DNA of 63,047 nucleotides from Candidatus Methylomirabilota bacterium (GCA_035493355.1 DATJIJ010000110.1:1-63047); one strand, 5' to 3'. Counted from the first letter of the stretch, positions 11,086 to 52,860 are shown. A program made the numbers and translations. Notes: generated by a model not told the origin, from the letters alone.

Positions 11086-11141
11086 GATGGGCCTCCTCCG
11101 ATACATTGGCCGCCACGGCTCCTGGCCGTGGCCGGCGCGGG

Positions 11142-19442: not shown

Positions 19443-20444
19443 CTATTCGTACCGGGAACGCTGGTCCCCTGACGGGCCTGGGCGTGCCAGCAGGACGGAA
19501 GCGGAGAGGACCAGCGCCCGGCGCGCGGCCTTGCGCATCCGCAGGGAGTCCCTCGCTTGCCGGGCGGCCGCGACTCTCCCTCGTGGGAGCCCACGGACGC
19601 CCAGGCCGATCGCCATGCACAGCAGGCCCACGCTTCGGCTGACGCGAGAGCGCCCTCGGCGTGCCAGGAAATCCTCGATCCCGTCGACCCAGCGCGTGCC
19701 CCCCGGGGCCTGACTGCCACCGATGGCGTGATGCGCCCGAGCGGACGGAGCCAGACCTACCGACCAGCCGCGCTCGAGGAGGCGGGCGCACAGGTCCGTA
19801 TCCTCGCCATACAGAAAGATGCTCTCGTCGAACCCGCCGATCTCCCTGATCGCCGCGGGGCGCAGGAGCGCGACTGCGCCGCTGATCCATTCGACGCTGC
19901 GCGTCGCCGTTCGGGTGGAGGGGCGGAGCATCCAGCCGCGCCAGGCGCCGCCCCGATCGTCGGGGATGAGCCGGTTCAGGAAGAGGAAGTGGCTGGCGAG
20001 GGAGCGAAGGCCGGGGAGCATTCCCGCGCTCTCGGCGCCGCCGATGCCCGCGCCCGAGATGGACGGTCCAACGGCGGCCAGCCGAGCATTCGCGGTAATC
20101 GCCGCGTGGAGCGCGGCAACCGTCCCGTCGTCGAGTCGTGCATCGGGGTTCAGCAGCAGCCACCACTCGCCGCGGGCCATCGCGAAGGCCTGGTTGTTGG
20201 CGGCGCCGAACCCCCGGTTCTCGGCGTTGCGCATGACGGTGGCGGCGGGGAATGCCGCGGCGGCGACATCGGCCGCTCCATCGGTCGAGGCGTTGTCCAC
20301 CACGATGAGCTCGGTCGCGACGCCCGCTCCATCCGCGGAATCCACTGCCGACCGCAGGCAGTCGACGACGTCACCACGACTCTGATAGGTGACGCAGATG
20401 ACAGTAAGCCCGACGGCAGCTCCGTTCGGCTTGGTTGCGCTCAC
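19443..20444 (-). CDS. glycosyltransferase family 2
   Basis: ORF 19443..20960 trimmed to GTG 20442-20444 (GTGA overlap with the upstream stop). Motifs: LTVICVTYQSRGDV ... LIVVDNASTDG ... NRGFGAANNQA. Confidence 0.85.
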   Translation of the reverse strand: MSATKPNGAAVGLTVICVTYQSRGDVVDCLRSAVDSADGAGVATELIVVDNASTDGAADVAAAAFPAATVMRNAENRGFGAANNQAFAMARGEWWLLLNPDARLDDGTVAALHAAITANARLAAVGPSISGAGIGGAESAGMLPGLRSLASHFLFLNRLIPDDRGGAWRGWMLRPSTRTATRSVEWISGAVALLRPAAIREIGGFDESIFLYGEDTDLCARLLERGWSVGLAPSARAHHAIGGSQAPGGTRWVDGIEDFLARRGRSRVSRSVGLLCMAIGLGVRGLPRGRVAAARQARDSLRMRKAARRALVLSASVLLARPGPSGDQRSRYE

Positions 20445-21586
20445 CGCCCGAGGTCCCGGTAGACCGCCACCACACCCTCGACCATCCGCTCGACCGAGAA
20501 TTCCGCGGCCACGCGGGCGCGTGCGGCCTCCCCGAGCCGTTCCATGCGTCGTGGCTCGGCCAGCAGCGCCGAGATGGCATCGGCCAGTGCCCCCGTGTCG
20601 CCGGGAGGCACGAGGACCCCGCTCACGCCATTCTCGACCATCTCGGGCACGCCACCGCCGGAGGCGGCCACGACCGCGCAGCCCGCCCGCATCGCCTCGA
20701 GGACCACGGTCGGGAACGGATCCGGCCAGGTCGACGGAACGGCGACCACGTCTGCCGCGTCGCACACGGCTGCGCCATCGGCGATAAACCCGGGTGTCAG
20801 CACGCGATCGGTCAGGCCAGCTGCGGCGAGGCGTTCCTGGAGATCCCGGGTCCGCCACTCCTCGCCGGGCGGCGGGTCGCCCGCCACCACGAACCGCGCA
20901 GCCGGGAATGCGGGAGCGACCTGCGCCAGGGCCCGCACGAAGAGGTCGTACCCCTTCCATCGGTTGAGCCGGCCGATGTAGGCAACCAGCGGCCCGTCAC
21001 CCGACAGCGCGGCAAGCGGTGCGGGCTCGCGCGGCGGGATGCCGTTGCGGACCGTCACGATCCGGCCGGCGCGCAGCCCCCATTGCGTCAGGTGTCGGCG
21101 CACGGCATCGCTCACGCAGATGACGCGATCGGCGGTCAGGACCGGCGCGAGGCGCAGCAGCCAGGCGATCGGCCGTGGCCGGACCACGATCTCGTGGACG
21201 TGCCACGCCATGCGGCAGCCGCCCGGGCGTCCGAGGATGGCGGCGACCAGCAGCGCGGTCGTGTTGACGTGGACGATCTGCGCGTGGAGGGCCCGCACCC
21301 GCCGGCGAAGATGGCGGCGCGCGGCGATGAGCGCGCGCAGGTAGGCGGGCAGGCCGGCAAGCCGCAGATAGCGACGTCGGGCCGGCGCGAGCGGCCCGCG
21401 CTCGAAGGCAATCCCCTCTGCGGCGAGCTGCGAGCTGAGCCAGCCGGGCGGTAGGTCGTCCGCAAGGATGACCGCCACCCGCTGCCCGCGGTCCCGGAGT
21501 GCCAGGACGAGGCTGAGCAGGACCCGGTCGGCGCCATACGCCTCGTCGGAGGCATGCAGGAAGAGGACGTCGACCGGCTGGCTCAT
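20441..21586 (-). CDS. glycosyltransferase family 4 (GT-B)
   Basis: Trimmed to ATG 21584-21586 (MSQPVDVLFLHASDEAYGADRVLL), an ATGA overlap with the Wzx stop. C-terminal motif: PSTWPDPFPTVVLEAMRAGCAVVAASGGGVPEMV. Confidence 0.85.
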   Translation of the reverse strand: MSQPVDVLFLHASDEAYGADRVLLSLVLALRDRGQRVAVILADDLPPGWLSSQLAAEGIAFERGPLAPARRRYLRLAGLPAYLRALIAARRHLRRRVRALHAQIVHVNTTALLVAAILGRPGGCRMAWHVHEIVVRPRPIAWLLRLAPVLTADRVICVSDAVRRHLTQWGLRAGRIVTVRNGIPPREPAPLAALSGDGPLVAYIGRLNRWKGYDLFVRALAQVAPAFPAARFVVAGDPPPGEEWRTRDLQERLAAAGLTDRVLTPGFIADGAAVCDAADVVAVPSTWPDPFPTVVLEAMRAGCAVVAASGGGVPEMVENGVSGVLVPPGDTGALADAISALLAEPRRMERLGEAARARVAAEFSVERMVEGVVAVYRDLGR

Positions 21587-23043
21587 CCGCCGGCGAGCCG
21601 GGAGCGCTGCCAAGCGCCAAGCATCGGCCGTCCGGGCCCGATGAGCGCAACCAGCCCGTAGGCGACGAGGCCCGTCGCACCGGCCAGCAGCGGCGCCCAC
21701 GGCTCCGGCGCCGCCGCCCGCACCGCCAGTCCGGCCAGCGCGCCGATCGTCGAGGCAGCCGCCAGGCCGATCATCGCCGTGGGGTCCATTCCGACCGACC
21801 CGAACTGGCGGCGAACGAAGAGCGCATAGAGCGCCCCTACCGCCAGCGCAGCAGCAATGGCTCCCCCGACAGTGGCCACCAGCCCGAACGCCGGAATCGC
21901 AAGGAGGTTGATGCCGATCACCAGCGCCAGCGCCGTGGCGGCCGCCGCGACGCGCTTTCCCTGCGCGTCCGCACTCGTGAGCGCGACGCCGTAGAGGTAG
22001 CCGAGGTAGCGGATCGGCACCGCGAGCGACAGCGCGGCGAGAACCCAGCCCGTCTCGGGCGGGGTGTCGAAGAGGGCCGGCAGCAGCCGATCACCGGTGG
22101 AGACGAGCACCGCCGGGACCGCCCCGCCGATCAGCAGCAGGCCGCGCCCCACCTGCCCGAGCAGCGGCGCCACCCGCTCGGGCTCGTGGACGAACCGCCG
22201 CGCAAGCTCCGGGAAGGCGCCTCGCGCAGCCGCCTCCGGGACGTACTCGAACGACGCGATGAGGCGGGTAGCAGCGAAGTAGGAGCCGGCCGCCGCCAGC
22301 CCGCCTGGGATCAGCAGGCCGACGATTACGGTGTCGACGCGGGTGTAGGCGATCCCGAGCACCGCGAATGCCGCGAAGGGCGGAGACTGGCCAGCGAGGC
22401 GGCGAAACTCGGTGCCGGTGGGGAGTCCCATCGAGACGCGGCCGATGAGGGCCACGAGGGCGAAGCCCGCGAGCGCCGAGCTCACCAGGACGGCGACACC
22501 GGCGCCGAAGATCACGGCGCTCGGGAGGTCGGGGCGCAGGGCGAGCAGCCCGGTCACGACGCCGACCCAGGCAAGGTTCTCGACCACGATGTGCGCGGCG
22601 CTGACGCCGAATCGCTGGCGAGCCATGAAGACGGCCCGGGTCAGCTCGGCGAACGACTGGATCGCGATTCCGGTCGCGACCAGGAGGATCGTCGGCGCCG
22701 CGTCTCCCCCGATGGCGAGCGCCACCACCGCGGCGACCATGATCGCCACGCTGAGCGTCACCAGTCGGAGGAGCGACATGCCGATCAGCAGCGGGCCGGC
22801 GCGCCCTGGCTCCCGCGCCGCCTCCCGGACGAGGAGCGAGATCGCGCCGAGGTCGGAGAGGGCGCCGGCGATGGAGCCGATCGCAAAGCCGAGCGCGACG
22901 GCTCCGAGCTCCACGTCGCCCCGCAGCCGCCCGACGAGCGCCAGCACGACCAGCGTGGTACCGGCTGAGATGATGCGCCCGACCAGCAGGATCGCGGTCC
23001 GACGCGGCATCGATGGGCCGGGGCCGTAGGGTGCCGGCGTCAT
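21583..23043 (-). CDS. Wzx-type oligosaccharide flippase (MOP/polysaccharide biosynthesis protein family)
   Basis: About 14 TM spans and Polysacc_synt-like N-terminus RRTAILLVGRIISAGTTLVVLALVGR. Start taken at ATG 23041-23043, 5 nt after the upstream stop. Confidence 0.75.
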   Translation of the reverse strand: MTPAPYGPGPSMPRRTAILLVGRIISAGTTLVVLALVGRLRGDVELGAVALGFAIGSIAGALSDLGAISLLVREAAREPGRAGPLLIGMSLLRLVTLSVAIMVAAVVALAIGGDAAPTILLVATGIAIQSFAELTRAVFMARQRFGVSAAHIVVENLAWVGVVTGLLALRPDLPSAVIFGAGVAVLVSSALAGFALVALIGRVSMGLPTGTEFRRLAGQSPPFAAFAVLGIAYTRVDTVIVGLLIPGGLAAAGSYFAATRLIASFEYVPEAAARGAFPELARRFVHEPERVAPLLGQVGRGLLLIGGAVPAVLVSTGDRLLPALFDTPPETGWVLAALSLAVPIRYLGYLYGVALTSADAQGKRVAAAATALALVIGINLLAIPAFGLVATVGGAIAAALAVGALYALFVRRQFGSVGMDPTAMIGLAAASTIGALAGLAVRAAAPEPWAPLLAGATGLVAYGLVALIGPGRPMLGAWQRSRLAGG

Positions 23044-23047: not shown

Positions 23048-23863
23048 TCACGCCGTGGTCCATGAGTCGGAGTGCAGGATGCGAACCGCGTTGGCCAGCT
23101 GCTTCGCGGCAAGGGTACCCGCGAAGACCCCGGCGAGCACGGGGAGCACCAGCGGCCGCGCCGCCCCGCCGAGTGCCATGCGACCCCCGTCGGCCAGCAG
23201 GGCGAGGCAGAAGAGATTCATCGAAGCCGGGTAGTTCCAGAGAAAGGCCACCCGCCGGTAGAGCCAGTAGAGGATCGTCATTGGCGAGGCGCCGGCAGGG
23301 AGCGGGGACGCATCGATCCGCCCGTGGGAGAGGTCGGCCGCGGCCGGCCGTCGGCCGGTCACGTTGAGCCGAGCCTGGTCGCCGAATGGCGACGCGAAGG
23401 CGACCCCGAGCAGCGCCAATGCGGCTGCCCACGGCGCGAAGTCGCTCTCGACCATCAGCGCGTAGCCGGCCGCGCCGTAGAGCGCCCGGTTCTGGATGAA
23501 GTGGCCGGCGAGGTCCAGGTAGGTGCCGCGCAGGCCGGAGGTACCGCGGACCCGGGCCACCTCGCCGTCCACGACGTCGAGCAGGTATGCCAGCTGGAGG
23601 AGGAGGACGGCGACGAGGTAGGCCGTGGCGCTCGCCGGGACGATCGCCAGCCCGCCGGCGACCCCGGCCGTGATGGAGAGCGCAGTCACGGCATCGGCCG
23701 GCAGTGCCGTGAAGCGGGTGATCGCGAACGTGACGTACGGAGAGATGCGCCGGATGGCGAGCCGCGCGTAGGTGGGGTCGGCGAGGAGGTGGCGATCGTT
23801 CTGGCCGGCGTCCCGTACCTGCGCCAGGGTTCGCGGCCTGGCGGGCCGCGTCTGGTCAGCCAT
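23048..23863 (-). CDS. CDP-alcohol phosphotransferase family membrane protein (paralogue A)
   Basis: Family signature DVVDGEVARVRGTSGLRGTYLDLAGH = D-x2-D-G-x2-A-R-x8-G-x3-D-x3-H, with His in place of the final Asp. Multi-TM. 8-nt overlap with paralogue B. Confidence 0.8.
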   Translation of the reverse strand: MADQTRPARPRTLAQVRDAGQNDRHLLADPTYARLAIRRISPYVTFAITRFTALPADAVTALSITAGVAGGLAIVPASATAYLVAVLLLQLAYLLDVVDGEVARVRGTSGLRGTYLDLAGHFIQNRALYGAAGYALMVESDFAPWAAALALLGVAFASPFGDQARLNVTGRRPAAADLSHGRIDASPLPAGASPMTILYWLYRRVAFLWNYPASMNLFCLALLADGGRMALGGAARPLVLPVLAGVFAGTLAAKQLANAVRILHSDSWTTA

Positions 23864-24728
23864 CGGCGTCTGCTCGACCGTCGGCGTCGCGTCTCGCTTC
23901 GACCATGCGGATCAGCGCGTGATTACGGCGCGCGCTCAGCATCAGGTGGGCCGGGAACGCCAGCGCCCACAGGCCCAGCAGCACGCCGCGGGCGGAAGGG
24001 GCCGCGGGGAGCGTCAGCGCCAGCAATATGTCGAGCAGCACCGCCAGGGTGACGAGGTGGACGCTGCCGGGATAGATGAGCACCTCCCCGATGAGCGAGC
24101 GGAGCGAACGACCGTGGGCGCGACCGGCGATCCCCCCGCGGTCCTCGACCGCCATCGAGGCGACACCGGCCGCGGCGACGTCACTGGGACGGGCGTCGTC
24201 CCGTAACGCCGCCTGGAACGGCGCACTGTTCGCCAGCGAGGGGTCCTCCCGCTGCATCGCGATGAGCACATGCTCCTTGCAGGAGAAGGTGAAGGCGGCG
24301 AGCTCGATCGCCGCAACCGCGCCGAGCGGCAGGTACGCGAACTGCTGGGCCGACCACGCGAGGCTGGCCGACACGCCGAGCGCGGTGAGCACCGGGACGT
24401 AGAAGTGCGTCAGCCAGTCGAGGTACGAACCGGCCACCGAGCTCCGACCCGTGAACCGGGCCACCTGCCCGTCTGAGAAGTCGAGGATGTAGCCGATCTG
24501 GAGTGCCGCGACCGCCGCAGCCGACCACCATCCCAGCGGCAGGAAGAGGATGCCTGCCCCGGTCGCACCAAAGGCCGCACCGAGCAGGGTGACCTGGTCC
24601 GGGCTGAGGCCAAGCTTGAGGCAAACGAGGGTGAAGTACGGCGACAGATGGGCGCCGTACAGTCGGTTGAGCGCGAATTCCTGCTCCGGCCGCTTCCGGG
24701 CGACCTCGAGCACGCGCTGCAGCGTCAC
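23856..24728 (-). CDS. CDP-alcohol phosphotransferase family membrane protein (paralogue B)
   Basis: Trimmed to GTG 24726-24728 (GTGA overlap). Signature DFSDGQVARFTGRSSVAGSYLDWLTH, again ending in His instead of Asp. Confidence 0.8.
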   Translation of the reverse strand: MTLQRVLEVARKRPEQEFALNRLYGAHLSPYFTLVCLKLGLSPDQVTLLGAAFGATGAGILFLPLGWWSAAAVAALQIGYILDFSDGQVARFTGRSSVAGSYLDWLTHFYVPVLTALGVSASLAWSAQQFAYLPLGAVAAIELAAFTFSCKEHVLIAMQREDPSLANSAPFQAALRDDARPSDVAAAGVASMAVEDRGGIAGRAHGRSLRSLIGEVLIYPGSVHLVTLAVLLDILLALTLPAAPSARGVLLGLWALAFPAHLMLSARRNHALIRMVEARRDADGRADADG

Positions 24729-25450
24729 GGACGAAGCCTCGGCAGGAGGCTGCGGGCGAGCGCCAGGTCGGCCGGGAAGTCGATCTCCGTCCATGCGCGC
24801 CCGGCGGTCGGAATGGCGCGTACCTTCAGCCCGGCCTCGATGGCTCGATTCACGGCTGCCTCGAAGTAGGACGCGAGCCCGCCCGCTGCCAGCTCGGCAT
24901 CCATGCCCTCTACGATGCGCGAGACCGCAGCCGCGCGAAAGATGCCGACCCCGATGAACTCGCCAGCGGTCTCAGCCGGAAGCAGCTCCTTTGACAGCCT
25001 GAGGACCCGATCGCCGTCGAGGGCGGCCTTCATCTGCTCCGGCTCGCACTCGCGAACGTCGATGGGCAGGGCGGCGTCGGCGTCGCTGGTGATGAGGTCA
25101 TCAAGAACGCTCGGCTCGAAGACGGTATCGGCGTGGAGGTAGACGAAGTCGTCGGAAAGGTGCTTTCGCGCCATCCACGCTGAGCCGATCACGTTTGTCA
25201 CCGACCAGAAGGGGTTCCAGACGAATGCGGCCGTCATCGGCGTGCGCAGGCGGGCGCTCACCGCCGCTTCGACCTGTCCCCGCTCATAGCCCGTCACCAC
25301 CACGACCCGCTCCACGCCGCGGCTGGCGAGCAGGTCGAGCTGCAGCTCGAGCGGCGAGATTCCGCCCAGGTCGACAAGCGACTTCGGCCGTCCCTCCGTC
25401 TCGGCGCCGAGTCGCGACCCTCGGCCGGCGGCCATGATCAGTGCATCCAC
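24725..25450 (-). CDS. small nucleotidyltransferase, LicC / IPCT-like (phospho-alcohol cytidylyltransferase type)
   Basis: Trimmed to GTG 25448-25450. N-terminal VDALIMAAGRGSRLG...PKSLV (the G-x-G-x-R-L nucleotide loop). About 240 aa, with the C-terminal W-x-E-I-D motif (RAWTEIDFPADL) as in LicC-type enzymes. Confidence 0.7.
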   Translation of the reverse strand: MDALIMAAGRGSRLGAETEGRPKSLVDLGGISPLELQLDLLASRGVERVVVVTGYERGQVEAAVSARLRTPMTAAFVWNPFWSVTNVIGSAWMARKHLSDDFVYLHADTVFEPSVLDDLITSDADAALPIDVRECEPEQMKAALDGDRVLRLSKELLPAETAGEFIGVGIFRAAAVSRIVEGMDAELAAGGLASYFEAAVNRAIEAGLKVRAIPTAGRAWTEIDFPADLALARSLLPRLRP

Positions 25451-25460
25451 GGACCCCTCC

Positions 25461-26612
25461 TCACAGACTGGCCACGGCCAACTCCGCGAGATCGCTGGGC
25501 GCCGTCGGACCCGGGTCGTTGGCCAGCGTTCCCTCCACCCTCGACACGATGTCGGCAACCTGGTCCGGCCGAACGCCAAGCGACGCCAGGCCGCCAACCA
25601 TCCCGATCTCGCGCATCCAGTCGCCGATCCGCTCGATCAGGCGATCGGCGCCAACTCCGGGAGGCTCCGTAGGGGAGACGCCGCAGCGGACCGCCAACTC
25701 GTCGAGGCGCTCGACGGCGTGGACCCGCGTGCGTCGCAGCCATGCCGGCATGATCGCCGCCACGCCCCGCGCGTGCGAGGCATCGGTGAATCCGGCGAGG
25801 GCGTACTGCATCCGATGGGGCAAGCAGGTCGATGCAGTCGCCAGGTTGATTCCCATCAGGAGTGCTGCGTAAGCGGCCCCGCTCCGCGCGTCGATCGAGT
25901 CCGGCTCGGCGATCGCCTGCGGTACGGCCTGGAGGAGACGACGCAACGCGTCACCCGCCAGTGCGATGTTGAGGGGCGATGCGGCGCGCGAGACGGCCGT
26001 CTCCAGGGCGTGCGCGGCGGCGTCGAATCCCGCCTCGGCGGTGATCGATCGATCCGCGCCCAGAGTGAGCTCCGGGTCCACGATTGCGACGCGCGGGGCC
26101 ACGCCGCGCCCGCGGATGGCACGCTTTCGAGTCGCGTCCCGCTGGAAGAGGATCGCCCCGCGGCTCACCTCGGCGCCGGTGCCGGCGGTCGTCGGCAGCG
26201 CGACCACCGGTGGCCCAATCGGGCGCGGGACTGGCTCCCCGGCAAGGAGCTCGCCGAGATCGGCCCCGCCGGCCACGATCGCGGCCGCCTTGGCGAGGTC
26301 CATCGTTGAGCCGCCACCAACGGTCACGACCGCGTCGGGCCGTGCCGCGACGAGCCGTTCCGCCGCGGCGTGAACCGCCTCGTCGTCGGGCTCGCCGCCG
26401 GTGGTCACGTGGTCCACCAACTCGACGCCGGCTGCCGTTAGCGACGCCCTGATCTCGTGGCCGAATCCGCCACGTTCCAGCGAGCGGGCGCCCGTCACGA
26501 GGACGGCGCGCCGCCCGAGGCCGGACACCACCTCCCCGACCTCACGGCGGCGCCCCAGCCCGAAGCGGATCTCGGTGTCGAGCATGAAGTCGAATGGCTG
26601 CGCGAGCGTCAC
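25461..26612 (-). CDS. group III iron-containing alcohol dehydrogenase family protein
   Basis: ORF 25461..27245 trimmed to GTG 26610-26612 (GTGA overlap). Motifs: VTVGGGSTMDLAKAAA, LPTTAGTGAEVS, and the metal ligand region FDAAAHALE ... LPHRMQYAL. Confidence 0.8.
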   Translation of the reverse strand: MTLAQPFDFMLDTEIRFGLGRRREVGEVVSGLGRRAVLVTGARSLERGGFGHEIRASLTAAGVELVDHVTTGGEPDDEAVHAAAERLVAARPDAVVTVGGGSTMDLAKAAAIVAGGADLGELLAGEPVPRPIGPPVVALPTTAGTGAEVSRGAILFQRDATRKRAIRGRGVAPRVAIVDPELTLGADRSITAEAGFDAAAHALETAVSRAASPLNIALAGDALRRLLQAVPQAIAEPDSIDARSGAAYAALLMGINLATASTCLPHRMQYALAGFTDASHARGVAAIMPAWLRRTRVHAVERLDELAVRCGVSPTEPPGVGADRLIERIGDWMREIGMVGGLASLGVRPDQVADIVSRVEGTLANDPGPTAPSDLAELAVASL

Positions 26613-28144
26613 AGGTTCTCGCTGCGAGCAGGCTGCGTGCGCAGGACCTCGGCGTGGCGCGCCAGCAGCTCCTCTCGCTCCGCGAAGAGGTCGCGGAGCG
26701 ACGCATACAGGCCTCGGTAGATCCCGAAGAAGTCCCGGTACATCTCGGTGCGCGCCGGGTCCGGCTCGAACGTGCGCCCGAACCTGACCGCCGCCCTGAT
26801 CGCCTCGTCGATCGATGCGTAGCCACCGGTCTTCACGCTCACCAGGATCGCGGCGCCGAGGGCGGTGCTCTCCAGCTCCTGCGTCACCGTCAACGGGACG
26901 CCCAGCATGTCCGCCTTGATCTGGAGGATCGGCTCGATGCGGGCGAGCCCGCCCGACGCGACCACCCGGTCGACCCGGATTCCGAGCTCGCGCAGTCGCT
27001 CCGCGATATCGAGCACGCTGTATCCAACCCCCTCGAAAACAGCTCGGAGCAGGTCGCTGCGCCGATGGTTGCGTCCGAGCCCGAAGAAGACCGCGCGGGC
27101 GCTCGGGTCCCAGACCGGCGCGCGCTCGCCAAGCAAGTAGGGCAAGAAGGTGATCCCCGCTGCCCCGGGCGGCGGATCGGCCGCGTCCAGATCCATGGCG
27201 GCATAGGGATCGGCCTCGAGGTCGTACAGGAGCTGCTTCACCCACTCGATGGCGCCGCCGCCGAGGTTGTTGGAACCGCCGATCAGGAATAACCCGGGTC
27301 GCACGTAAGGCGCGGAGAATAGTCGGCCCGCCGGGTCGCGGATCTCAAGGTCCGTCACGGCGCGAAAGCTCGTCACCGTGCCCGAGACGTCGCACGCCTC
27401 GCCGCTGACCGAAACGCCGGCGCCGTAGACCGCGCAAATCGCGTCGTAGGCTGAGAGGACAACCTGGCATCCGGCGGGCAGGCCGAAGCGCTCCTGCAGC
27501 TCGGGCCGGACCGGCAGACCCAGGTCGGTGCCGGCCACCGGTGGGAACGAACCGGAATCGAGGCCGATCGCGGAGAGCAGCGCCTCCGGATAGCCATCTC
27601 CGCCGAGGCCATGGAGGTACTTGCTGGCGTTCAGGGGATCGGTGACCACTTCGCCGGTGAGGCACGCAACGAGGAAATCATTCGGGGAGGCAAACCAGCG
27701 GGCCGCCGCGTAGCGCTCGGGCTCGTGGTCCCGCAGCCACATGATCTTGGGAAGCATCAGGTCCGGAGTCACCCGGCGCTGCGGTCTGGCCATCTCCAGG
27801 AAGACGCGCTGGCCTCCGATCGCCTCCGCCTGGGAGGCGGCGCGAACGTCGCTGATCATGATCGCCATGCCGAGCGGGCGGCAGCTGGCGTCCAGCGGGA
27901 CGAGGCAGCCTGCGGAGGCAGTGACGGTGATCGCGCCGACGGCCGAGAGGTCGACCTGCCCGAGCACCTCCGCGATCACCTCCTCGCCGGTGCGCCACCA
28001 TTCGTTCGGATCCTGCTCGACCCGACCCTCGGCGAGGGAGGTGGCGATCGGCCGGTAGGCGATCCCGCGCCGCTCACCGGCGGGTCCGAAGACCGCAGCT
28101 CGCATCGACTTCAGCCCGAGGTTGAGCACGAGGACGTCGCTCAT
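26609..28144 (-). CDS. FGGY-family carbohydrate/polyol kinase (divergent N-terminal motif)
   Basis: 511 aa with two-domain FGGY layout. C-terminal VVASGGLARIEPILQIKADMLGVPL. The N-terminal phosphate-1 motif reads LNLGLKSMR instead of D-x-G-T/S-T/S-x-x-K/R. Confidence 0.75.
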   Translation of the reverse strand: MSDVLVLNLGLKSMRAAVFGPAGERRGIAYRPIATSLAEGRVEQDPNEWWRTGEEVIAEVLGQVDLSAVGAITVTASAGCLVPLDASCRPLGMAIMISDVRAASQAEAIGGQRVFLEMARPQRRVTPDLMLPKIMWLRDHEPERYAAARWFASPNDFLVACLTGEVVTDPLNASKYLHGLGGDGYPEALLSAIGLDSGSFPPVAGTDLGLPVRPELQERFGLPAGCQVVLSAYDAICAVYGAGVSVSGEACDVSGTVTSFRAVTDLEIRDPAGRLFSAPYVRPGLFLIGGSNNLGGGAIEWVKQLLYDLEADPYAAMDLDAADPPPGAAGITFLPYLLGERAPVWDPSARAVFFGLGRNHRRSDLLRAVFEGVGYSVLDIAERLRELGIRVDRVVASGGLARIEPILQIKADMLGVPLTVTQELESTALGAAILVSVKTGGYASIDEAIRAAVRFGRTFEPDPARTEMYRDFFGIYRGLYASLRDLFAEREELLARHAEVLRTQPARSENL

Positions 28145-29034
28145 TCCGGCTCCTCGGTCCCGGCCGCGGCGTCGACCAGGGCCGTGGCTCGCGGTGCGCG
28201 GCCTGCGCTCCCGCAGAGCTCCATGTACTCGATCGCGAGCTCGCGGACGGCCGACCTTCCAGCGCCGAGGTAGTGCCGCAGGTCCCTGCTCGGTCCCTCG
28301 AGCTCCCGGGCGATGCCGTCGGCGAGCGCGCGCCCAACTCGCGACGAGATGTTCACCTTCCCGACCCCCGCGTCCACGGCGGCCGGGAGCTGGGCACGCA
28401 CGACCCCTGAGCCACCATGCAGCGCGAGCGGGGTGCCGGCCGCCCGTGCGAGCGCCGCGAGGAGCGCGATGTCCAGTTTGACCGAGTCGTCGGGCATCCG
28501 GTGGAGGCTGCCCAGCGCGGGCGCCAGGATGTCCACCCCGGTATCGGCGGCGAAAGCCGCGACCTGGTCGGGCGTCGCGGCTTCCCGTCGAGCGGCCTCG
28601 AGGCTGGAATCCTCCGACCCGCCGATCGTGCCGAGCTCGCCCTCGAGGATGGCGCCGGCCGCGTGCGCGTCCGAGACCAGGCGACGCGTGATCGCGACGT
28701 TCTCAGCGAGTGGGAGCGGCGAGCCGTCGAACATGACCGACGTGAATCCATCGGCCAGCGCCCGGTCGACCATTTCGGGGTCGCGGCAATGGTCCAGGTG
28801 CACGAGGACTGCCGCGCTCGACCGCGTCGCGGCGGTGAAGGCGAGGTCGCGGATCGTCTCGTACCCCGCGTAGGCGATCGCGCCCGGGCTGATCTGCAGG
28901 ATCACCGGCGAGCCGGCCGCCTCGGCCGCGGCGAGGATCCCCTGGATCGTCTCCATGTTGTTCACGTTGAAGGCGGGCAGCGCGTACCGACCGGCCACCG
29001 CCGCCGCCAGCAGCTCGGGGGCCTCTGGCCTCAC
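28141..29034 (-). CDS. class II (zinc) ketose-bisphosphate aldolase family protein (FBA / tagatose-bisphosphate aldolase type)
   Basis: ORF 28141..29454 trimmed to GTG 29032-29034 (GTGA overlap with the rmlD stop). Motifs: YALPAFNVNNMETIQGIL, VLVHLDHC, SVMFDGS, EGELGTIGGSED, LALHGGSG. Confidence 0.8.
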   Translation of the reverse strand: MRPEAPELLAAAVAGRYALPAFNVNNMETIQGILAAAEAAGSPVILQISPGAIAYAGYETIRDLAFTAATRSSAAVLVHLDHCRDPEMVDRALADGFTSVMFDGSPLPLAENVAITRRLVSDAHAAGAILEGELGTIGGSEDSSLEAARREAATPDQVAAFAADTGVDILAPALGSLHRMPDDSVKLDIALLAALARAAGTPLALHGGSGVVRAQLPAAVDAGVGKVNISSRVGRALADGIARELEGPSRDLRHYLGAGRSAVRELAIEYMELCGSAGRAPRATALVDAAAGTEEPE

Positions 29035-29903
29035 CGCGCCGGCCCGGCGCTCGACGCGGCCTCGACCAGGGAGGCGACGTAGGCGCGCGTCTCCTCTCCC
29101 CAGGTGAGCCGCGGCAATCCCGGGGTCGGGCGGAGGACGGCGCGAGGGGGGACCCGGGAGGCCCGTGGAAACGCCGATCGCGAGGTCGGCTCGAGCCGCA
29201 CCTCGCGACGCCCCTCCAGCGCGACCGTGGCCCACTCGAGCCGGCTCGCCGCCGGCGACCCGGCCAGGTGCACGATGCTGCCGGGCACATGGGCGTCGGT
29301 CACCCCGACGATCGCGGCGGCGAGGGCCGGCGTCCAGGTCGGGTTCCCCCACTCGTCGGCGACGACGCCCAGTGGGGTGTCGCCGGCCAGCGCTCGATCT
29401 GCCGCGGCGAGGATCTTCGTGACGAAGTTCGTGCCCCCTGGCCCAAAGAGCCATGCCGTCCGCACGATCAGATGGCGCGGCGCGGCCTCCGCGACTGCGC
29501 GCTCCCCCGCCAGCTTCGATGCGCCGTACGGATTGATGGGGCTCGGCAGACCGTCCTCCGCGTATGGTGCCGAGGCGCTCCCGTCGAAGACCTCGTTCGT
29601 GCTGATCTGTACAAAGAGCGCGCCGGCGCGGGCGGCACCGCCAGCCATCCGTCCGGGAGCGACACCGTTCAGCAGCATGGCGCGCTCGGGTGAGCGGGCG
29701 CAGCCGTCAACATCGGTCCAGGCCGCCGCATTCACAACGATCTCCGGCTCGAGCGATGCAATCACCTCGCCCGCCGCGGGGTCGGCGAGGTCGAGCTGGG
29801 AGCGATTCACGCTGACGACGGCATTTCCGGCGGCGGCAAAGGCGTCGACGAGCTGTCGTCCGAGCTGGCCCCTGGCACCCACCACCACGACGCGCTGGCT
29901 CAT
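29031..29903 (-). CDS. rfbD: dTDP-4-dehydrorhamnose reductase
   Basis: 290 aa. Motifs: VVVGARGQLG, PINPYGASKLAGE (the SDR YxxxK), VRTAWLFG. Confidence 0.9.
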   Translation of the reverse strand: MSQRVVVVGARGQLGRQLVDAFAAAGNAVVSVNRSQLDLADPAAGEVIASLEPEIVVNAAAWTDVDGCARSPERAMLLNGVAPGRMAGGAARAGALFVQISTNEVFDGSASAPYAEDGLPSPINPYGASKLAGERAVAEAAPRHLIVRTAWLFGPGGTNFVTKILAAADRALAGDTPLGVVADEWGNPTWTPALAAAIVGVTDAHVPGSIVHLAGSPAASRLEWATVALEGRREVRLEPTSRSAFPRASRVPPRAVLRPTPGLPRLTWGEETRAYVASLVEAASSAGPAR

Positions 29904-29904: not shown

Positions 29905-30936
29905 TCAATCGACCATCGCGCTGTTCGCGAGCCGCTCGCCGTACTGACGACGGTAGTAGTCGAGGTACTCGCCGCTCTTCAACGGCCGCCACCAGTCATC
30001 GCGATCGCGGTACCAGGCCACCGTCGCCGCCAGGTCGTCCTCGAACGACTGGCTCGGCTCCCAGCCGAGAGCCCGGAGCTTGGCGGAGTCGACCGAATAG
30101 CGCCGGTCGTGGCCGGGACGATCCTCCACCCGCCGGATCAGGGTGGCCGGCTTGCCGAGCAGCTCGAGGATGGCGTTCGTCAGGGCCTGGTTGGTGAGCT
30201 CGTTGCCGCCTCCGACGTTGTAGACCTCGCCCGGCTCCCCGCGCTCAAGGACCGCAGAGATCGCCTCGCAGTGGTCGCTGACGAAGAGCCAGTCGCGGAT
30301 CTGCTGGCCGTCGCCGTAGAGCGGGAGTGGCTCGTCGTCGATCGCGTTCGTGACGAAGAGCGGAATGATCTTCTCGGGGTACTGGAACGGGCCGAAGTTG
30401 TTGCTGGCGCGGGTGACGAGCACCGGCAGGCCGTAGGTCGCGTGATAGGCAAGGACGAGCAGGTCGCCCGCAGCCTTGCTCGCCGAGTAGGGACTGCGCG
30501 GCCGAAGCGGGTCGTCCTCGCTGGATGAGCCGGTCGCGACATTGCCATACACCTCGTCGGTGCTGACCTGGAGGTAGCGCGCGTGCCCGTGCCGCCGGGC
30601 GGCCTCCAGCAGGACGAAGGTGCCGTGCACATCGGTCTGGATGAATGCGTCGGGGGCGTCGATGCTGCGGTCGACGTGCGACTCGGCCGCGAAGTTGACG
30701 ATCGCATCGGCCTCGGCGGCGAGCTGGTCGACGACCTCTGGATCCCCTATGTCTCCCTGCACGAAGGCGTAGCGCGGCTCGTCGGCGAGATCGGCCAGGT
30801 TGGCCAGGTTTCCCGCATAGGTGAGCTTGTCGAGGACGGTGACCCGTACCGCAGAGTCACGGGCGAGGGCGTGGCGCACGAAGTTCGAGCCGATGAAGCC
30901 GGCGCCACCGGTGACGAGGAGGTGCCGCAGCGTCAC
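29905..30936 (-). CDS. rfbB: dTDP-glucose 4,6-dehydratase
   Basis: Trimmed to GTG 30934-30936 (GTGA overlap with the rmlA stop). Motifs: LLVTGGAGFIGSNFV, AAESHVDRS, SPYSASKAAGDLL, TRASNNFGPFQYPEK. Confidence 0.9.
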   Translation of the reverse strand: MTLRHLLVTGGAGFIGSNFVRHALARDSAVRVTVLDKLTYAGNLANLADLADEPRYAFVQGDIGDPEVVDQLAAEADAIVNFAAESHVDRSIDAPDAFIQTDVHGTFVLLEAARRHGHARYLQVSTDEVYGNVATGSSSEDDPLRPRSPYSASKAAGDLLVLAYHATYGLPVLVTRASNNFGPFQYPEKIIPLFVTNAIDDEPLPLYGDGQQIRDWLFVSDHCEAISAVLERGEPGEVYNVGGGNELTNQALTNAILELLGKPATLIRRVEDRPGHDRRYSVDSAKLRALGWEPSQSFEDDLAATVAWYRDRDDWWRPLKSGEYLDYYRRQYGERLANSAMVD

Positions 30937-31733
30937 GACGAGAGCTCGCCCGCGTCGATGGCTTCGGCGTCGACTTCCGAGGGGTCGTGGCCGGTGACGA
31001 CGGGGCGCTCGCTCGCCCACTCGGCGGCGAAGTTGGTCGACTCACGGAGCGAGTCGATGGTGCCCGCGTCGTGCCACTCCCCGGCGAAGACGGTGTGAGC
31101 CAGCTGGCCGGCGCGCAGGTAGTGGTTCAGGAGGTCGGTGATCTCGAACTCGCCGCGGGCCGAGGGCCTGAGCGAGTGGATCGCGTCGAAGACCGACGGC
31201 CGGAAGAGGTAGACGCCGATCGGGATCAGATCGCTCTTCGGGTGCTCCGGCTTCTCCTCGAAGCCGACGATCCGACCGTCATTGTCGAACTCGGCCACGC
31301 CGAATCGGTGCGGGTCGGGGACCTGCTTGAGGACGGCGCCCGCCTCGGACGCTCCGGCGGCGAACTCGTCGGCGAATGCGCGCAGCGAGCCGTTGAGGAT
31401 GTTGTCGCCCAGCACGATCGCAATCGGATCGTCGCCGGCAAAGTCCTTCGCCAGCCCGATGGCATGGGCAATCCCGAGCGCTCCGCGCTGGTAGCGATAG
31501 GTGAGGCTCAGGCCGAGGTCGGACCCGTCGTGGAGCAGCTCGAGGATGTCCCCCACCGACCTGCCACCAACGACCACCAGGACCTCGCGGCAGCCCATCT
31601 CGGCCAGGGTCTGGAGCGGGTAGAAGATCATCGGCCGGTCGTAGACGGGCAGCAGGTGCTTGTTGGTGACGAGCGTCATCGGAAAGAGGCGCGAGCCGCT
31701 GCCTCCGGCCAGCACGACACCCTTCAGCGCCAT
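30933..31733 (-). CDS. rfbA: glucose-1-phosphate thymidylyltransferase (short form)
   Basis: ORF 30933..32048 trimmed to ATG 31731-31733. Motif: MALKGVVLAGGSGSRLFPMTLVTNKHLLPVYDRPMIFYPL. Confidence 0.85.
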   Translation of the reverse strand: MALKGVVLAGGSGSRLFPMTLVTNKHLLPVYDRPMIFYPLQTLAEMGCREVLVVVGGRSVGDILELLHDGSDLGLSLTYRYQRGALGIAHAIGLAKDFAGDDPIAIVLGDNILNGSLRAFADEFAAGASEAGAVLKQVPDPHRFGVAEFDNDGRIVGFEEKPEHPKSDLIPIGVYLFRPSVFDAIHSLRPSARGEFEITDLLNHYLRAGQLAHTVFAGEWHDAGTIDSLRESTNFAAEWASERPVVTGHDPSEVDAEAIDAGELSS

Positions 31734-31887: not shown

Positions 31888-33297
31888 ATGATCCGACGAC
31901 ACCTCATGGCGCTGCGCCTCGCGCTCATGCTGGGCGACGGCGTCACGGCGGCTCTCGTCTTCCTCCTCGTCTCGTTCTTCCGCTTCGGCAACAGCGGATG
32001 GACCGGGATCTGGACTCGACTCGGGATCGATATCCGGCTGGCCGCCATCGGCTTCGGGCTGATCTGGGTCGTCGTGCTGTGGTACCAGGGGCTCTACCGC
32101 CTGCGCGCGCGGTGGCGACTGCGCACCGAGGCCGCCGACATCGTGCAGGCGACGATCCTGGTGGCCGCCCTCACCCTCTCGATCCTCTTCCTCTTCAAGC
32201 AGGAGGATGTCAGCCGGATCTTCCTGATCGCACTCTTCACCGCGGAGCCGCTCGTCACCCTGGCCGGCAGGGGGCTCCTCCGCTTCGCCTTCAGCGAGCT
32301 GCGCAGCCGCGGCCACAACGCCCGCTACATGCTGGTCGTGGGCACCGGCAAGCTGGCGCAGGACTTCGCCGACCTGGTCGAGACCCGTCCCAGCCTCGGG
32401 CTGCGCGTCATCGGCCACATCTCGGTCCCGGGCGAGACCCAGCCGGTCGTTACCCGCCGGATTCTGGGCACACTCGACGGGATCGAGGAGGTCCTCCACA
32501 CGAATGTCGTCGACGAGGTCGGGGCCTGCCTGGCACCAGAACAGGCCGGCCTCCTTGAGCCGATCGCCAGCCTCGCCGCAGATGAGGGGAAGACGGTCCG
32601 GATCCCGGTCGACCCCTCCGAGGGCGCCTTTCGCAACGCTCGCGAGGAGGAGTTCGAGGGTCTCCTCGTCCGATCGCTCGTCCACGATGGGCATCGCGAG
32701 GCCGGGCTCGTCATCAAGCGTCTCATCGACATCGCCGGCGCGGTGGTCGGGCTGGTGATCCTGAGCCCGATCATGCTGGTGACGGCGCTGCTCATCCAGG
32801 CCAGGGACGGGAGGCCGATCATCTTCCGCCAGACCCGCGTGGGCCTCCACGGCCGGCCATTCACGATCCTCAAGTTCCGCACCATGGCGCCCGATGCCGA
32901 GGAGCGGCTGCACGAGGTCGCGCACCTGAACGAGCTCCAGGGGGCGGCCTTCAAGGCCAGCAACGACCCGCGCATGAGCCCGCTCGGTCGCCGCCTCCGC
33001 CAGCTGAGCCTCGACGAGCTGCCACAGCTGTGGAACGTGCTGAAGGGCGAGATGAGCCTGGTCGGCCCGCGTCCGCCGCTTCCCTCCGAGGTCGTGGCGT
33101 ACGACATCTGGCACCGGCGCCGGCTCAGCATGAAGCCGGGGATCACCGGCCTCTGGCAGGTGGAGTCGCGCAACGAGGCAAACTTCGACCGATGGGTCGA
33201 GCTCGACCTGAGCTACATCGACCGCTGGACGCTGTGGCTCGACCTCAGCATCCTGCTGCGGACGATGCCGAACGTGGTGATGGCCCGCGGCCGCTGA
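31888..33297 (+). CDS. polyprenyl-phosphate sugar-1-phosphate transferase, large WbaP/EPS-initiating type (Bac_transf)
   Basis: 469 aa with N-terminal TM bundle. The catalytic domain is KRLIDIAGAVVGLVILSPIMLVTALLIQARDGRPIIFRQTRVGLHGRPFTILKFRTM ... [22 protein letters not shown]. Confidence 0.9.
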   Translation: MIRRHLMALRLALMLGDGVTAALVFLLVSFFRFGNSGWTGIWTRLGIDIRLAAIGFGLIWVVVLWYQGLYRLRARWRLRTEAADIVQATILVAALTLSILFLFKQEDVSRIFLIALFTAEPLVTLAGRGLLRFAFSELRSRGHNARYMLVVGTGKLAQDFADLVETRPSLGLRVIGHISVPGETQPVVTRRILGTLDGIEEVLHTNVVDEVGACLAPEQAGLLEPIASLAADEGKTVRIPVDPSEGAFRNAREEEFEGLLVRSLVHDGHREAGLVIKRLIDIAGAVVGLVILSPIMLVTALLIQARDGRPIIFRQTRVGLHGRPFTILKFRTMAPDAEERLHEVAHLNELQGAAFKASNDPRMSPLGRRLRQLSLDELPQLWNVLKGEMSLVGPRPPLPSEVVAYDIWHRRRLSMKPGITGLWQVESRNEANFDRWVELDLSYIDRWTLWLDLSILLRTMPNVVMARGR

Positions 33298-33308: not shown

Positions 33309-33911
33309 TCAGTCGTACCTGAGCGTGACCTCGCCCTCGGGGCTGACCTCGACGCGGCCAACCGGCCGGCACGGAACCCCCACCGCCACGGTGTACGGCG
33401 GGATATCGCGGTTCACGAACGAAGCGGCGCCAATGACCGAGTGATCGCCCACGCTGACGCCCTTCACGATCACCGACTGCGCGCCGACGTGGCTGTGATC
33501 CCCGATCGTCACCGGTGCGTGCTGGATCCCGGTCCGCCCCTCGCTCAGGACTCGTTCAACGGTGTCGTGGGTGTAGATCTGCACACCAGCGCTGATGTCG
33601 CATCCCACGCCGATCCGCAGCCCACCGGTGCCGTCGAGCAGCACCATGGGGCCGATCCAGGTGCCGGCTCCGACCGTCACATCGCCATAGACGTAGGCGG
33701 ACTGGTAGATGCTCGATCCCTCTCCGAAGCCAAGCTGGGCGGCGCGCTCCCAGCGGTCGGTGATGAGGTCCTGGAACGGCAGGTCGCGACTCCAGCGCTC
33801 CGAGGTCGCCTGACGCAACTCGTGGTACAGCTCGGTCAGGTCGTCGTGCGATGACGGCATCTCGCCGCCGAGAATACCCTGCACCGCTGCGCTAAGATCG
33901 GCCGACCGCAT
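33309..33911 (-). CDS. hexapeptide-repeat (LbH) acyl/acetyltransferase
   Basis: Left-handed beta-helix repeats: YVYGDVTVGAGTWIGPMVLLDG ... IGVGCDISAGVQIY ... VTIGDHSHVGAQSVIVKGVSVGDHSVIGAASFV. An alternative start is ATG 33860. Confidence 0.75.
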   Translation of the reverse strand: MRSADLSAAVQGILGGEMPSSHDDLTELYHELRQATSERWSRDLPFQDLITDRWERAAQLGFGEGSSIYQSAYVYGDVTVGAGTWIGPMVLLDGTGGLRIGVGCDISAGVQIYTHDTVERVLSEGRTGIQHAPVTIGDHSHVGAQSVIVKGVSVGDHSVIGAASFVNRDIPPYTVAVGVPCRPVGRVEVSPEGEVTLRYD

Positions 33912-33922
33912 CGGAGACCCCT

Positions 33923-36027: not shown

Positions 36028-36031
36028 ACGC

Positions 36032-45191: not shown

Positions 45192-45208
45192 CCGGGTAGG
45201 ATCTGGCG

Positions 45209-52848: not shown

Positions 52849-52860
52849 ACGGCCCAGATG

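Follow-up and report, generated by a model that had tools for sequence, protein, structure and literature searches.

Alcohols bound through phosphodiesters to bacterial surface polymers, such as glycerol, ribitol or choline, shape surface charge, phage receptors and immune recognition. To our knowledge, only a handful of pathways that supply the cytidine diphosphate (CDP)-activated donors of these groups have been described, nearly all of them in Firmicutes and pathogens. The present analysis deals with six consecutive minus-strand genes (positions 23,048 to 29,034) in a stretch of 63,047 nucleotides, called the window below (GCA_035493355.1, DATJIJ010000110.1:1-63047), from a metagenome-assembled genome (MAG) of Candidatus Methylomirabilota. 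These genes encode a class II aldolase, a kinase of the FGGY family, an iron-containing alcohol dehydrogenase (Fe-ADH), a nucleotidyltransferase (NT) and two CDP-alcohol phosphotransferases (CPT1 and CPT2). Sequence comparisons indicate that, within an operon for a Wzx/Wzy-dependent wall glycopolymer, they probably serve to supply a precursor, to activate it and to transfer it. An initial annotation of the window had already proposed that the block makes a CDP-activated alcohol phosphate and installs it in a wall polymer. This reading is now supported by comparative genomics, namely by the recurrence of the first four genes (hereafter the cassette), by the phospho-alcohol transferase genes adjoining them, by the fusions and the predicted fold of the NT and by the recurrence of the whole block.

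In the systems that supply CDP-ribitol and CDP-glycerol (TarI/TarJ, Bcs1, TagD, TagF/TarL), as in the pathway proposed here, a sugar phosphate is reduced, activated with CTP and transferred to a lipid-linked glycan. Furthermore, like wall-teichoic-acid and capsule systems, the cassette adjoins TagF-like genes and LytR-CpsA-Psr (LCP) ligase genes in many genomes. However, the place of a single MDR or SDR reductase is taken by three precursor enzymes (aldolase, FGGY kinase and Fe-ADH), and the NT is of the LicC/PntC type, unlike TagD (PF01467) and IspD/TarI. The window encodes membrane enzymes of family PF01066 together with Wzx/Wzy export. The scan of its genes, which did not extend to some smaller open reading frames (ORFs), revealed neither a Glyphos_transf (TagF/TagB-type) gene nor an ABC exporter (TagGH).

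Phosphonate tailoring, in which the Fe-ADH FomC/PhpC reduces phosphonoacetaldehyde, can be viewed as the nearest described chemistry for the succession of dehydrogenase, NT and transfer steps. As predicted for the present locus, it involves a group III Fe-ADH acting on a small anionic aldehyde, a cytidylylation by an enzyme with the LicC fold (Fom1, PntC) and a surface glycan as destination. Cytidylylation of 2-hydroxyethylphosphonate (HEP) by Fom1 and LicD-like neighbours of PntC have been reported (Rice et al. 2019, PMC6697681). However, a phosphoenolpyruvate (PEP) mutase was seen neither among the scanned genes of the window nor in those cassette loci whose neighbours were scanned, and the same is true of phosphonopyruvate decarboxylase; their place is occupied by an aldolase and a kinase, so that the product should be a phosphate ester and not a phosphonate. 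A phosphonate pathway, which the similarities to PntC and to Fe-ADHs had brought to mind, was rejected for the window because neither the mutase nor the decarboxylase was seen among its scanned genes.

Other systems share part of the gene set. IPCT/DIPPS and AF2299 pair an NT that has this fold with a CDP-alcohol phosphotransferase using a soluble CDP-alcohol donor; the present locus differs by a glycan operon in which no inositol-phosphate synthase was seen, by two separate CPT genes and by a His where the transferase motif usually has its fourth Asp. The Lic pathway (LicA, LicC, LicD) and the CDP-2-glycerol pathway of S. pneumoniae (Gtp1-3) combine, as here, a kinase, a LicC-type NT and a transferase decorating a glycopolymer, and the cassette even lies beside a LicD gene in two loci (L057 and L062). 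In the pneumococcal set, Gtp1 is the reductase that makes the alcohol ahead of phosphorylation. Compared with Lic, the kinase is of the FGGY type and not of the choline-kinase/APH type, an aldolase belongs to the set and the window holds no LicD. PMC1391919 mentions the set of gtp genes.

A survey of 2026 (PMC13118837) notes in Streptomyces, without functional work, the synteny of genes for a CDP-alcohol phosphatidyltransferase, a nucleotidyltransferase, AraM (a glycerol-1-phosphate dehydrogenase, G1PDH), TagG, TagH and a GT2. The same trio of NT, G1PDH-like and CDP-OH_P_transf genes occurs in a sister locus of the window (L028), whereas the window itself has the aldolase, kinase and Fe-ADH genes instead of the G1PDH-like gene and an NT of another subfamily (36% identity). 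In mammals, ribitol is phosphorylated by an FGGY kinase and then converted by ISPD to CDP-ribitol (PMC13576159). This is a precedent for an alternative order of steps (reduction of an aldehyde or aldose to a polyol, FGGY phosphorylation, cytidylylation), although the mammalian route employs an IspD-type NT, has no aldolase and belongs to a eukaryotic setting.

A full-text literature search found no paper on an aldolase/FGGY/Fe-ADH/NT cassette, only analogies (PMC6697681, PMC13576159) and the note on Streptomyces synteny. What differs from the described systems is the precursor enzyme set, the NT subfamily and, in the window, a Wzx/Wzy pathway that employs membrane enzymes of PF01066, while the logic would be that of the known decorations by CDP-ribitol, CDP-glycerol and CDP-choline.

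The cassette in other genomes

Two scans were carried out, one of genomes (one genome per species) with the NT alignment as query, which gave 19 loci, and one of metagenomes with the kinase alignment as query, which gave 80. The counts rest on hidden Markov model (HMM) matches to all ORFs, and a kinase was assigned to the cassette type when it reached 440 bits or more with the profile of the cassette kinases. Individual loci are designated by L, and NT homologues by P, followed by a number.

The order aldolase, kinase, Fe-ADH, NT is kept in 11 MAGs of Chloroflexota, whose NTs share 61-68% identity with that of the window, and in 7 of Verrucomicrobiota (36-42%). In the MAGs of Chloroflexia and Limnocylindria, one to three Glyphos_transf genes of the TagF type come after the cassette, and an LCP gene often lies upstream. 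In all seven Verrucomicrobiota, it is followed by a gene for a CDP-OH_P_transf protein of about 245 amino acids; where enough upstream sequence is available, a Wzy_C gene precedes the cassette, in most cases together with AsnB-like and GT4 genes. Some 34 of the 80 metagenome loci have a cassette-type kinase, nearly always with the motif N[LM]G[LM]KS where it is readable. When the flanks are long enough, all of these loci also encode an NT, all except L034 an Fe-ADH and most an aldolase. The G+C content of the cassette loci ranges from 28 to 72%, those of low G+C being partly marine, which indicates that several phyla are involved. FGGY kinases scoring below 440 bits almost never have cassette partners; the few that do comprise L084, which is part of a broken cassette locus, and cases of single matches on the opposite strand. 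Altogether, 59 cassette loci from Chloroflexota, Verrucomicrobiota and unassigned metagenome contigs fall into 25 kinase clusters at 70% identity. A tblastn search with the kinase against 72,556 plasmids returned only generic FGGY kinases with 29-33% identity.

Among 35 cassette loci with at least 4.5 kb of downstream sequence, 23 carry a TagF-like gene and 8 a CDP-OH_P_transf gene. Neither was detected by HMM in the remaining 4, two of which are the loci with LicD directly beside the cassette. A phospho-alcohol transferase of one of these types (TagF, LicD or CDP-OH_P_transf) adjoins the cassette in 16 of the 18 clusters with usable flanks. Moreover, kinases at least 70% identical to each other may have different partners, since one cluster includes loci with TagF and loci with a CPT pair, and another loci with TagF and loci with LicD. 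It would seem that closely related cassettes feed three unrelated classes of enzymes, whose characterised members all move an alcohol phosphate from a CDP-alcohol. The cassette is thus not bound to CDP-alcohol phosphotransferases, with which the initial annotation had associated it. Nor do homologous blocks sit mainly in catabolic sugar operons, which would have told against that annotation.

Recurrence of the entire block beside rml, Wzx and glycosyltransferase genes had also been envisaged. In two loci (L024 and L026), the gene order is LCP, Bac_transf, aldolase, kinase, Fe-ADH, NT, CPT1, CPT2, Polysacc_synt, GT4, GT2, Acyl_transf_3, a gene for a glycoside-hydrolase (GH)-like protein of 940 amino acids and Wzy_C, with no rml genes. 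The link to Wzx, GT4, GT2, Wzy, LCP and Bac_transf therefore lies inside the conserved unit and that to rml outside it. In the same way, the description of the polymer as rhamnose-containing holds for the window and for the sister loci L027 and L028 only, and not for L024 and L026.

These two sister loci, which belong to the lineage of the window, are variants that share rmlA/B/D with it. L028 (8176-11616) has an NT gene, a gene of the Fe-ADH superfamily and two CPT genes; the best match by far of the second protein is the G1PDH model PRK00843, over its full length, at 272 bits for a cut-off of 413. L027 (9204-10795) has an NT, a single CPT and no precursor enzyme. CPT2 is well conserved across the variants (67% identity in L028, 55% in L027), while its CPT1-like partner is only 36% identical in L028 and absent from L027. 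The gene set of L028 suggests a CDP-sn-1-glycerol route. Carrying sn-glycerol-1-phosphate over from L028 to the window was rejected as proof, as the NTs of L027 and L028 are only 36% identical to that of the window and lack the cassette motifs.

Some cassette loci have additional genes for the activation of alcohol phosphates. Two loci of low G+C, L041 (6009-8142) and L062 (6190-8304 and 13483-14817), encode a TagD-like cytidylyltransferase fused to an IolG-like oxidoreductase of the GFO/IDH/MocA family. They also encode a GDPD phosphodiesterase; that of L062 forms a fusion with a metallophosphoesterase. L004 encodes an IspD-SDR fusion of the Bcs1 type. In Verrucomicrobiota, AsnB-like genes precede the cassette in 5 of the 7 loci. 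A protein of about 250-290 amino acids with a conserved EFDCVPL motif and no Pfam match (L022, 5554-6417, and its orthologues in L017-L021) is encoded directly upstream of the aldolase, also in 5 of the 7, and may be an unclassified glycosyltransferase. Another arrangement is seen in L034 (9956-15656), where genes for the kinase, an APS-kinase-like protein, the NT, an AsnB-like amidotransferase and the aldolase follow one another, with a sulfotransferase-like gene upstream.

The predicted enzymes and the putative pathway

The ORF check and Pfam matches bear out the six minus-strand genes that had been called in the window (Table 1); none contains an internal stop. In addition, an identical kinase is encoded on two other contigs, where the recorded gene calls match those of the window. 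The stop-start linkage of the block to rmlA/B/D upstream and to the flippase, GT4 and GT2 genes downstream could likewise be confirmed from the junctions: from rmlA to GT2, each is an overlap of 4 or 8 bases or a gap of at most 10 bases. Terminator-like and promoter-like sites between 14.5 and 34 kb are no more frequent than in shuffled sequences, so that nothing in them speaks against one long transcript. None of the six proteins reaches an NCBIfam equivalog cut-off; the only NCBIfam model passed is a broad subfamily, TIGR00167, by the aldolase.

The closest sequence matches of the NT in the PDB are LicC (1.5e-8), PntC (3e-7) and the inositol-1-phosphate cytidylyltransferase (IPCT) of T. maritima. 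In agreement with the LicC/IPCT type first assigned to it, its AF2 model (pLDDT 95.5) is placed by Foldseek nearest to PntC (TM 0.85), LicC (0.80) and T. maritima IPCT (0.80), ahead of sugar-1-phosphate enzymes. The N-terminal GxGxR(L) loop is present as AAGRGSRL. A search of 1.84 billion cluster representatives gave 96 homologues at E <= 1e-30 and 2820 at E <= 1e-10. According to Pfam, ten long homologues comprise six fusions to Glyphos_transf, one to CDP-OH_P_transf, one to GpsA (NAD-dependent glycerol-3-phosphate dehydrogenase), one to an aminotransferase and one protein with no second domain. The fused homologues are 33-40% identical (P0299, P0312, P0339, P0343, P0352, P0361, P0363, P0398 and P0416). 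The fusions tie the clade to the activation of alcohol phosphates for TagF-type and CDP-alcohol-type transferases. The NTs of the cassette form a subfamily with the signature YLHADTV and NPF(W/F)xxxNV; at the YLHAD position, the GpsA-fused NT, most TagF-fused NTs and those of L027 and L028 have N[AGS]D, and the TagF-fused P0339 has HGD. Considering its predicted fold, these fusions and the gene context, the NT is probably a CTP:phospho-alcohol cytidylyltransferase of the LicC/PntC/IPCT type.

The aldolase matches the whole TIM-barrel domain of PF01116 (278.6 bits, residues 7-279 against profile positions 5-277 of 277) and passes the ketose-bisphosphate aldolase subfamily TIGR00167 with 223 bits for a cut-off of 215.6. 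The NCBIfam equivalogs (FbaA, GatY/KbaY and others) all remain below their cut-offs (best 240 for 343), so that it is assigned neither to fructose-bisphosphate nor to tagatose-bisphosphate aldolases. HLDH, a loop Glu, GxxH and LHGGSG, which in this family hold the Zn-binding His residues and the catalytic Asp, are kept in the window protein and at 95% or more in 43 cassette orthologues. The aldolases of Chloroflexota cassettes end, after a variable linker, in a conserved acidic tail, ...(D/E)EPE (28141-28155 on the minus strand of the window), which those of Verrucomicrobiota lack; a partner enzyme may dock there.

The kinase exceeds the cut-offs of FGGY_N (99.5 bits) and FGGY_C (121.7 bits), while its top NCBIfam match, XylB, stays at 225 bits under a cut-off of 380. 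Residues 8-13 read NLGLKS in place of DxGT[ST] (LNLGLKSMR in the window, LDIGTTS or LDQGTTS in solved kinases). This change, as N[LM]G[LM]KS, is conserved in the aligned cassette kinases from Chloroflexota, Verrucomicrobiota and low-GC metagenome contigs, over the full 28% to 72% span of G+C, and might indicate that the donor or the acceptor of the phosphoryl group is unusual. The catalytic Asp (YDA), the phosphate-2 motif (VSGT/VSGTVT) and the adenosine motif (SGGLAR) are kept in 56 sequences. At the substrate-contact positions, the protein matches none of the solved xylulose, glycerol and gluconate kinases; in particular, the residues RE and W of glycerol kinase are not kept at the aligned positions. 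By these sequence criteria, the cassette kinase is a distinct FGGY subfamily.

The solved proteins closest to the Fe-ADH are methanol and 1,3-propanediol dehydrogenases. Its best NCBIfam matches, all below their cut-offs, are 4-hydroxybutyrate dehydrogenase, the choline dehydrogenase GbsB, PsrA from phosphonate clusters and sulfoacetaldehyde reductase, the substrates of which are small charged aldehydes (succinic semialdehyde, betaine aldehyde, phosphonoacetaldehyde and sulfoacetaldehyde). No equivalog could be assigned among the models compared, ErcA being best with 201 bits for a cut-off of 550 and G1PDH scoring 22 bits. The nucleotide motif GGGSxxD and the motifs GFDxxxHA, TCLPHRxQY and KxxxRG are conserved in 49 orthologues, together with a later His; the Asp and His residues are presumably metal ligands, as in the family. 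Because LPHRxQY and KxxxRG are conserved and the nearest named families take charged aldehydes, this group III enzyme is probably an aldehyde reductase acting on an anionic, likely phosphorylated, substrate.

CPT1 and CPT2 are 28% identical to each other. The AF2 model of CPT1 (pLDDT 92.6) has the six-helix transmembrane fold of PF01066 and its top Foldseek matches, all with probability 1.00 and a TM of about 0.5, are the phosphatidylinositol-phosphate (PIP) synthase 5d92, AF2299 (4o6m) and IPCT-DIPPS (4mnd). The nearest NCBIfam matches of the CPTs are archaetidylinositol-phosphate and PIP synthases. Both proteins carry DxxDGxxARx8GxxxDxxxH (residues 83-108 of CPT1 and 96-121 of CPT2), which does not fully correspond to the family signature D1xxD2GxxARx8GxxxD3xxxD4, as D4 is a His (residues 108 and 121). 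This His occurs in 69 of 70 homologues of CPT1 and in 86 of 86 homologues of CPT2, which are about 50-85% identical apart from two distant CPT2 matches at about 40%; many of these homologues are on contigs that equal in length contigs bearing NT homologues. By contrast, the fourth Asp is retained in the CPT partners of the Verrucomicrobiota cassettes. In the solved CDP-alcohol phosphotransferases, which are dimeric, the role of catalytic base has been proposed for the fourth Asp. The conserved His could serve as base in CPT1 and CPT2, and a CPT1-CPT2 heterodimer is possible.

Taken together, the aldolase, the FGGY kinase and the Fe-ADH would produce the phosphate of a small alcohol, starting from a sugar phosphate of central metabolism. 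In the order preferred here, with low confidence, the kinase would make a ketose bisphosphate, the aldolase would cleave it to dihydroxyacetone phosphate (DHAP) and an aldehyde phosphate, and the Fe-ADH would reduce the latter to an alcohol phosphate of two to four carbons. Alternatively, an aldehyde could be reduced to a polyol, which the FGGY kinase would phosphorylate last. Possible outcomes include the conversion of glyceraldehyde-3-phosphate to sn-glycerol-1-phosphate, on stereochemical reasoning, of erythrose-4-phosphate to erythritol-4-phosphate, or of glycolaldehyde phosphate to 2-hydroxyethyl phosphate. The NT would then form the CDP-alcohol from the alcohol phosphate and CTP, and the CPT pair would move the alcohol phosphate to hydroxyl groups with release of CMP, the acceptor being either an undecaprenyl-diphosphate-linked repeat unit or a first alcohol phosphate already placed on it. 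The repeat unit itself would be primed by Bac_transf, built by GT4 and GT2 with dTDP-rhamnose available, flipped by Wzx, polymerised by Wzy_C and linked to peptidoglycan by LCP proteins.

The alcohol is probably neither sn-glycerol-3-phosphate nor ribitol-5-phosphate; the argument, a weak one, is that TagD-like domains (L041, L062) and an IspD-SDR fusion (L004) co-occur with the cassette. It is quite possible, if not yet probable, that the cassette is a widespread unrecognised route to a CDP-alcohol other than CDP-sn-3-glycerol and CDP-ribitol, used by three classes of transferases, and that the His-variant CPTs act on a lipid-linked glycan. Candidate donors would then be CDP-sn-1-glycerol, CDP-erythritol and CDP-2-hydroxyethanol. 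If this proves true, a four-enzyme donor pathway would be added for soil Chloroflexota, Verrucomicrobiota and low-GC, partly marine, metagenome contigs. The CDP-alcohol phosphotransferase superfamily would also gain a role in glycopolymers outside lipid synthesis, with its first members acting on a lipid-linked glycan. Erythritol-, arabinitol- and mannitol-phosphate teichoic acids are chemically known from actinomycetes and we know of no genes for them; the cassette is a concrete candidate for one such orphan polyol-phosphate teichoic acid.

Weight of the evidence and rival explanations

Several observations weigh against a donor pathway of this kind. MAGs or metagenome contigs are the source of most loci, which were sampled by way of short peptide patterns. 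The set is not invariable: L041 has no aldolase gene within 10 kb, L045 has none in the roughly 6 kb available upstream, and the Fe-ADH is absent in L034. In the kinase, the Mg-binding Asp that is canonical in DxGT[ST], the phosphate-1 motif of ASKHA proteins, is missing. In the aldolase, the Arg of Chloroflexota proteins in 'DLRHYL', which we assume to match the distal-phosphate-binding Arg of fructose-bisphosphate aldolases, is kept neither in Verrucomicrobiota nor in the wide set, and this weakens the order of steps by bisphosphate cleavage. As for transfer, replacement of the fourth motif Asp in both CPTs means that their activity is not guaranteed, and the characterised CDP-alcohol phosphotransferases that we know of, in line with the PDB matches of CPT1, yield di-myo-inositol-phosphate or the head groups of phospholipids and do not decorate glycans.

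The general mechanism proposed for the block takes in the rather unlikely case in which the alcohol is simply glycerol phosphate. The cassette would then be an alternative route to sn-3 or sn-1 glycerol phosphate, for instance by reduction of glyceraldehyde-3-phosphate, with new enzymes and a conventional chemistry. TagF-like proteins, the commonest partners of the cassette, usually use CDP-glycerol, and the fusion of one NT homologue to GpsA, the G1PDH-like gene at the same position in L028 and the GDPD genes adjoining the cassette in L041 and L062 point the same way. However, glycerol-3-phosphate and glyceraldehyde-3-phosphate are central metabolites, which would make a conserved kinase and aldolase superfluous. 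The TagD-like domains alongside the cassette in L041 and L062 also argue against ordinary CDP-glycerol supply, a reading to which we give a minor share of probability, as does the YLHAD motif of the cassette NTs, since it is N[AGS]D that the GpsA-fused, most TagF-fused and L027/L028 NTs possess.

A Kennedy-type synthesis, in which the CPT pair would act on diacylglycerol or another membrane lipid to give a new head group or an anchor like that of lipoteichoic acid, appears improbable. Members of PF01066 that combine a soluble CDP-alcohol donor with a lipid acceptor, such as the eukaryotic choline/ethanolamine phosphotransferases and Treponema Cpt, do make lipids; the Xenopus cholinephosphotransferase 8ero is among the fold matches of CPT1, the NCBIfam models nearest to the CPTs are those of lipid enzymes and the JGI names of CPT homologues are phospholipid synthases. 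Yet both CPT genes are overlap-linked within the conserved block of Wzx, GT and Wzy genes, cassettes so closely related that their kinases share 70% identity or more go, in other genomes, with soluble enzymes of glycopolymer synthesis (TagF or LicD type), and NT-TagF fusions exist. These partners would also be senseless for a compatible solute of the IPCT/DIPPS type, that is, a soluble di-alcohol phosphate osmolyte made from the CDP-alcohol and a second alcohol phosphate. Although IPCT-DIPPS ranks among the best NCBIfam and fold matches of the NT and CPTs, and one NT homologue is fused to CDP-OH_P_transf as in that enzyme, the embedding of the genes in glycan operons and the lack of an inositol-phosphate synthase among the window genes scanned make an osmolyte very improbable. 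Finally, aldolases, kinases and dehydrogenases of these three families are typical of sugar catabolism and could have been a catabolic module lying near glycan genes by chance. This explanation is close to refuted by the tight co-occurrence of the kinase subfamily with the NT in 25 clusters of 28-72% G+C, by the translational coupling of the genes and by the Pfam-scanned loci, in which no transporter or regulator gene lies between or directly flanks the cassette genes.

Glycan genes around the block

The block stands in a window of about 70% G+C that is rich in glycan genes. The RmlA/B/D, Polysacc_synt flippase, GT4 and GT2 assignments of the initial annotation are upheld by translations and by Pfam on an identical contig. 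A set for Wzx/Wzy-dependent assembly (Bac_transf, GT4, GT2, Polysacc_synt and Wzy_C) is thus present in or beside the operon.

Table 1. Features of the block and of its glycan neighbourhood in the window. Junctions are to the next gene of the operon, in bases (negative values, overlap; positive values, gap).
Feature	Coordinates	Strand	Size, matches and basis	Junction
rmlA	30933-31733	-	upstream, same overlap-linked operon; translation, Pfam on identical contig	-4 (GTGA)
rmlB	29905-30936	-	upstream, same overlap-linked operon; translation, Pfam on identical contig	+1
rmlD	29031-29903	-	upstream, same overlap-linked operon; translation, Pfam on identical contig	-4 (GTGA)
Class II aldolase	28141-29034	-	297 aa; PF01116, E 8e-83	-4 (ATGA)
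FGGY kinase	26609-28144	-	511 aa; FGGY_N 3e-28, FGGY_C 4e-35	-4 (GTGA)
Fe-ADH	25461-26612	-	383 aa; PF00465 9e-39, ADH_Fe_C (PF25137) 8e-26	+10, GGAGG ribosome-binding site in gap
NT	24725-25450	-	241 aa; NTP_transf_3 4e-13	-4 (GTGA)
CPT1	23856-24728	-	290 aa; PF01066 (CDP-OH_P_transf) 30.2 bits, gathering score 22	-8
CPT2	23048-23863	-	271 aa; PF01066 26.7 bits, gathering score 22	+4
Polysacc_synt (Wzx-type) flippase	21583-23043	-	gene call and Pfam on identical contig	-4
GT4	20441-21586	-	gene call and Pfam on identical contig	-4
GT2	19443-20444	-	gene call and Pfam on identical contig	
Secreted glycoside-hydrolase-like protein	16518-19400	-	960 aa; weak FlaA, GH catalytic-core and FlgD-Ig matches	
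Wzy_C polymerase/ligase-like protein	15071-16447	-	Pfam; end of conserved block	
Priming polyprenyl-phosphate sugar-phosphate transferase (CoA_binding_3 + Bac_transf)	31888-33297	+, divergent	PF02397, E 7e-68	
LCP ligase	43803-45227	-	Pfam	
LCP ligase	47965-49515	+	Pfam	
rmlC homologue	11136-11690, low-coordinate end approximate	-	tblastn and ORF readout	

Much of this neighbourhood is shared with the loci that have the entire block. The order flippase, GT4, GT2 is also that of L024 and L026, where the orthologue of the priming Bac_transf gene lies directly upstream of the aldolase gene. Orthologues of the 960-aa GH-like protein and of Wzy_C are found at the same position in L024, L026 and L027. 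The former may be a dedicated hydrolase or a chain-length factor of the polymer. The two LCP genes of the window, between which lie DUF3048 and GGDEF genes, likely provide the wall-attachment step; in L024 and L026, the block is flanked by LCP and DUF3048 genes.

The rmlC homologue, located about 17 kb from rmlA/B/D, beyond Wzy and GT4 genes, would complete the dTDP-L-rhamnose pathway. It was detected by tblastn with the RmlC sequences of E. coli (46% identity, E 2e-49) and M. tuberculosis (40%, E 1e-34). The window also holds two further GT4 genes. Beyond the priming transferase gene, a region at 33309-38799 encodes a second Polysacc_synt flippase along with a hexapeptide acetyltransferase, a dehydratase, a DegT aminotransferase and a protein of 443 amino acids that matches no Pfam family, and a further glycan group at 50441-62347 includes Wzy_C, a small Bac_transf, GT2, a UDP-sugar dehydrogenase and a second DegT.

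A protein identical to the NT of the window is recorded from a MAG to which NCBI gives the label Methylomirabilota, whereas all taxonomically labelled close relatives of the NT belong to Chloroflexota or Limnocylindria. The gene content of the window (two LCP ligases, DUF3048 and synteny with L024 and L026) also fits a placement in Chloroflexota/Limnocylindria, and the Methylomirabilota label of the bin may be wrong.

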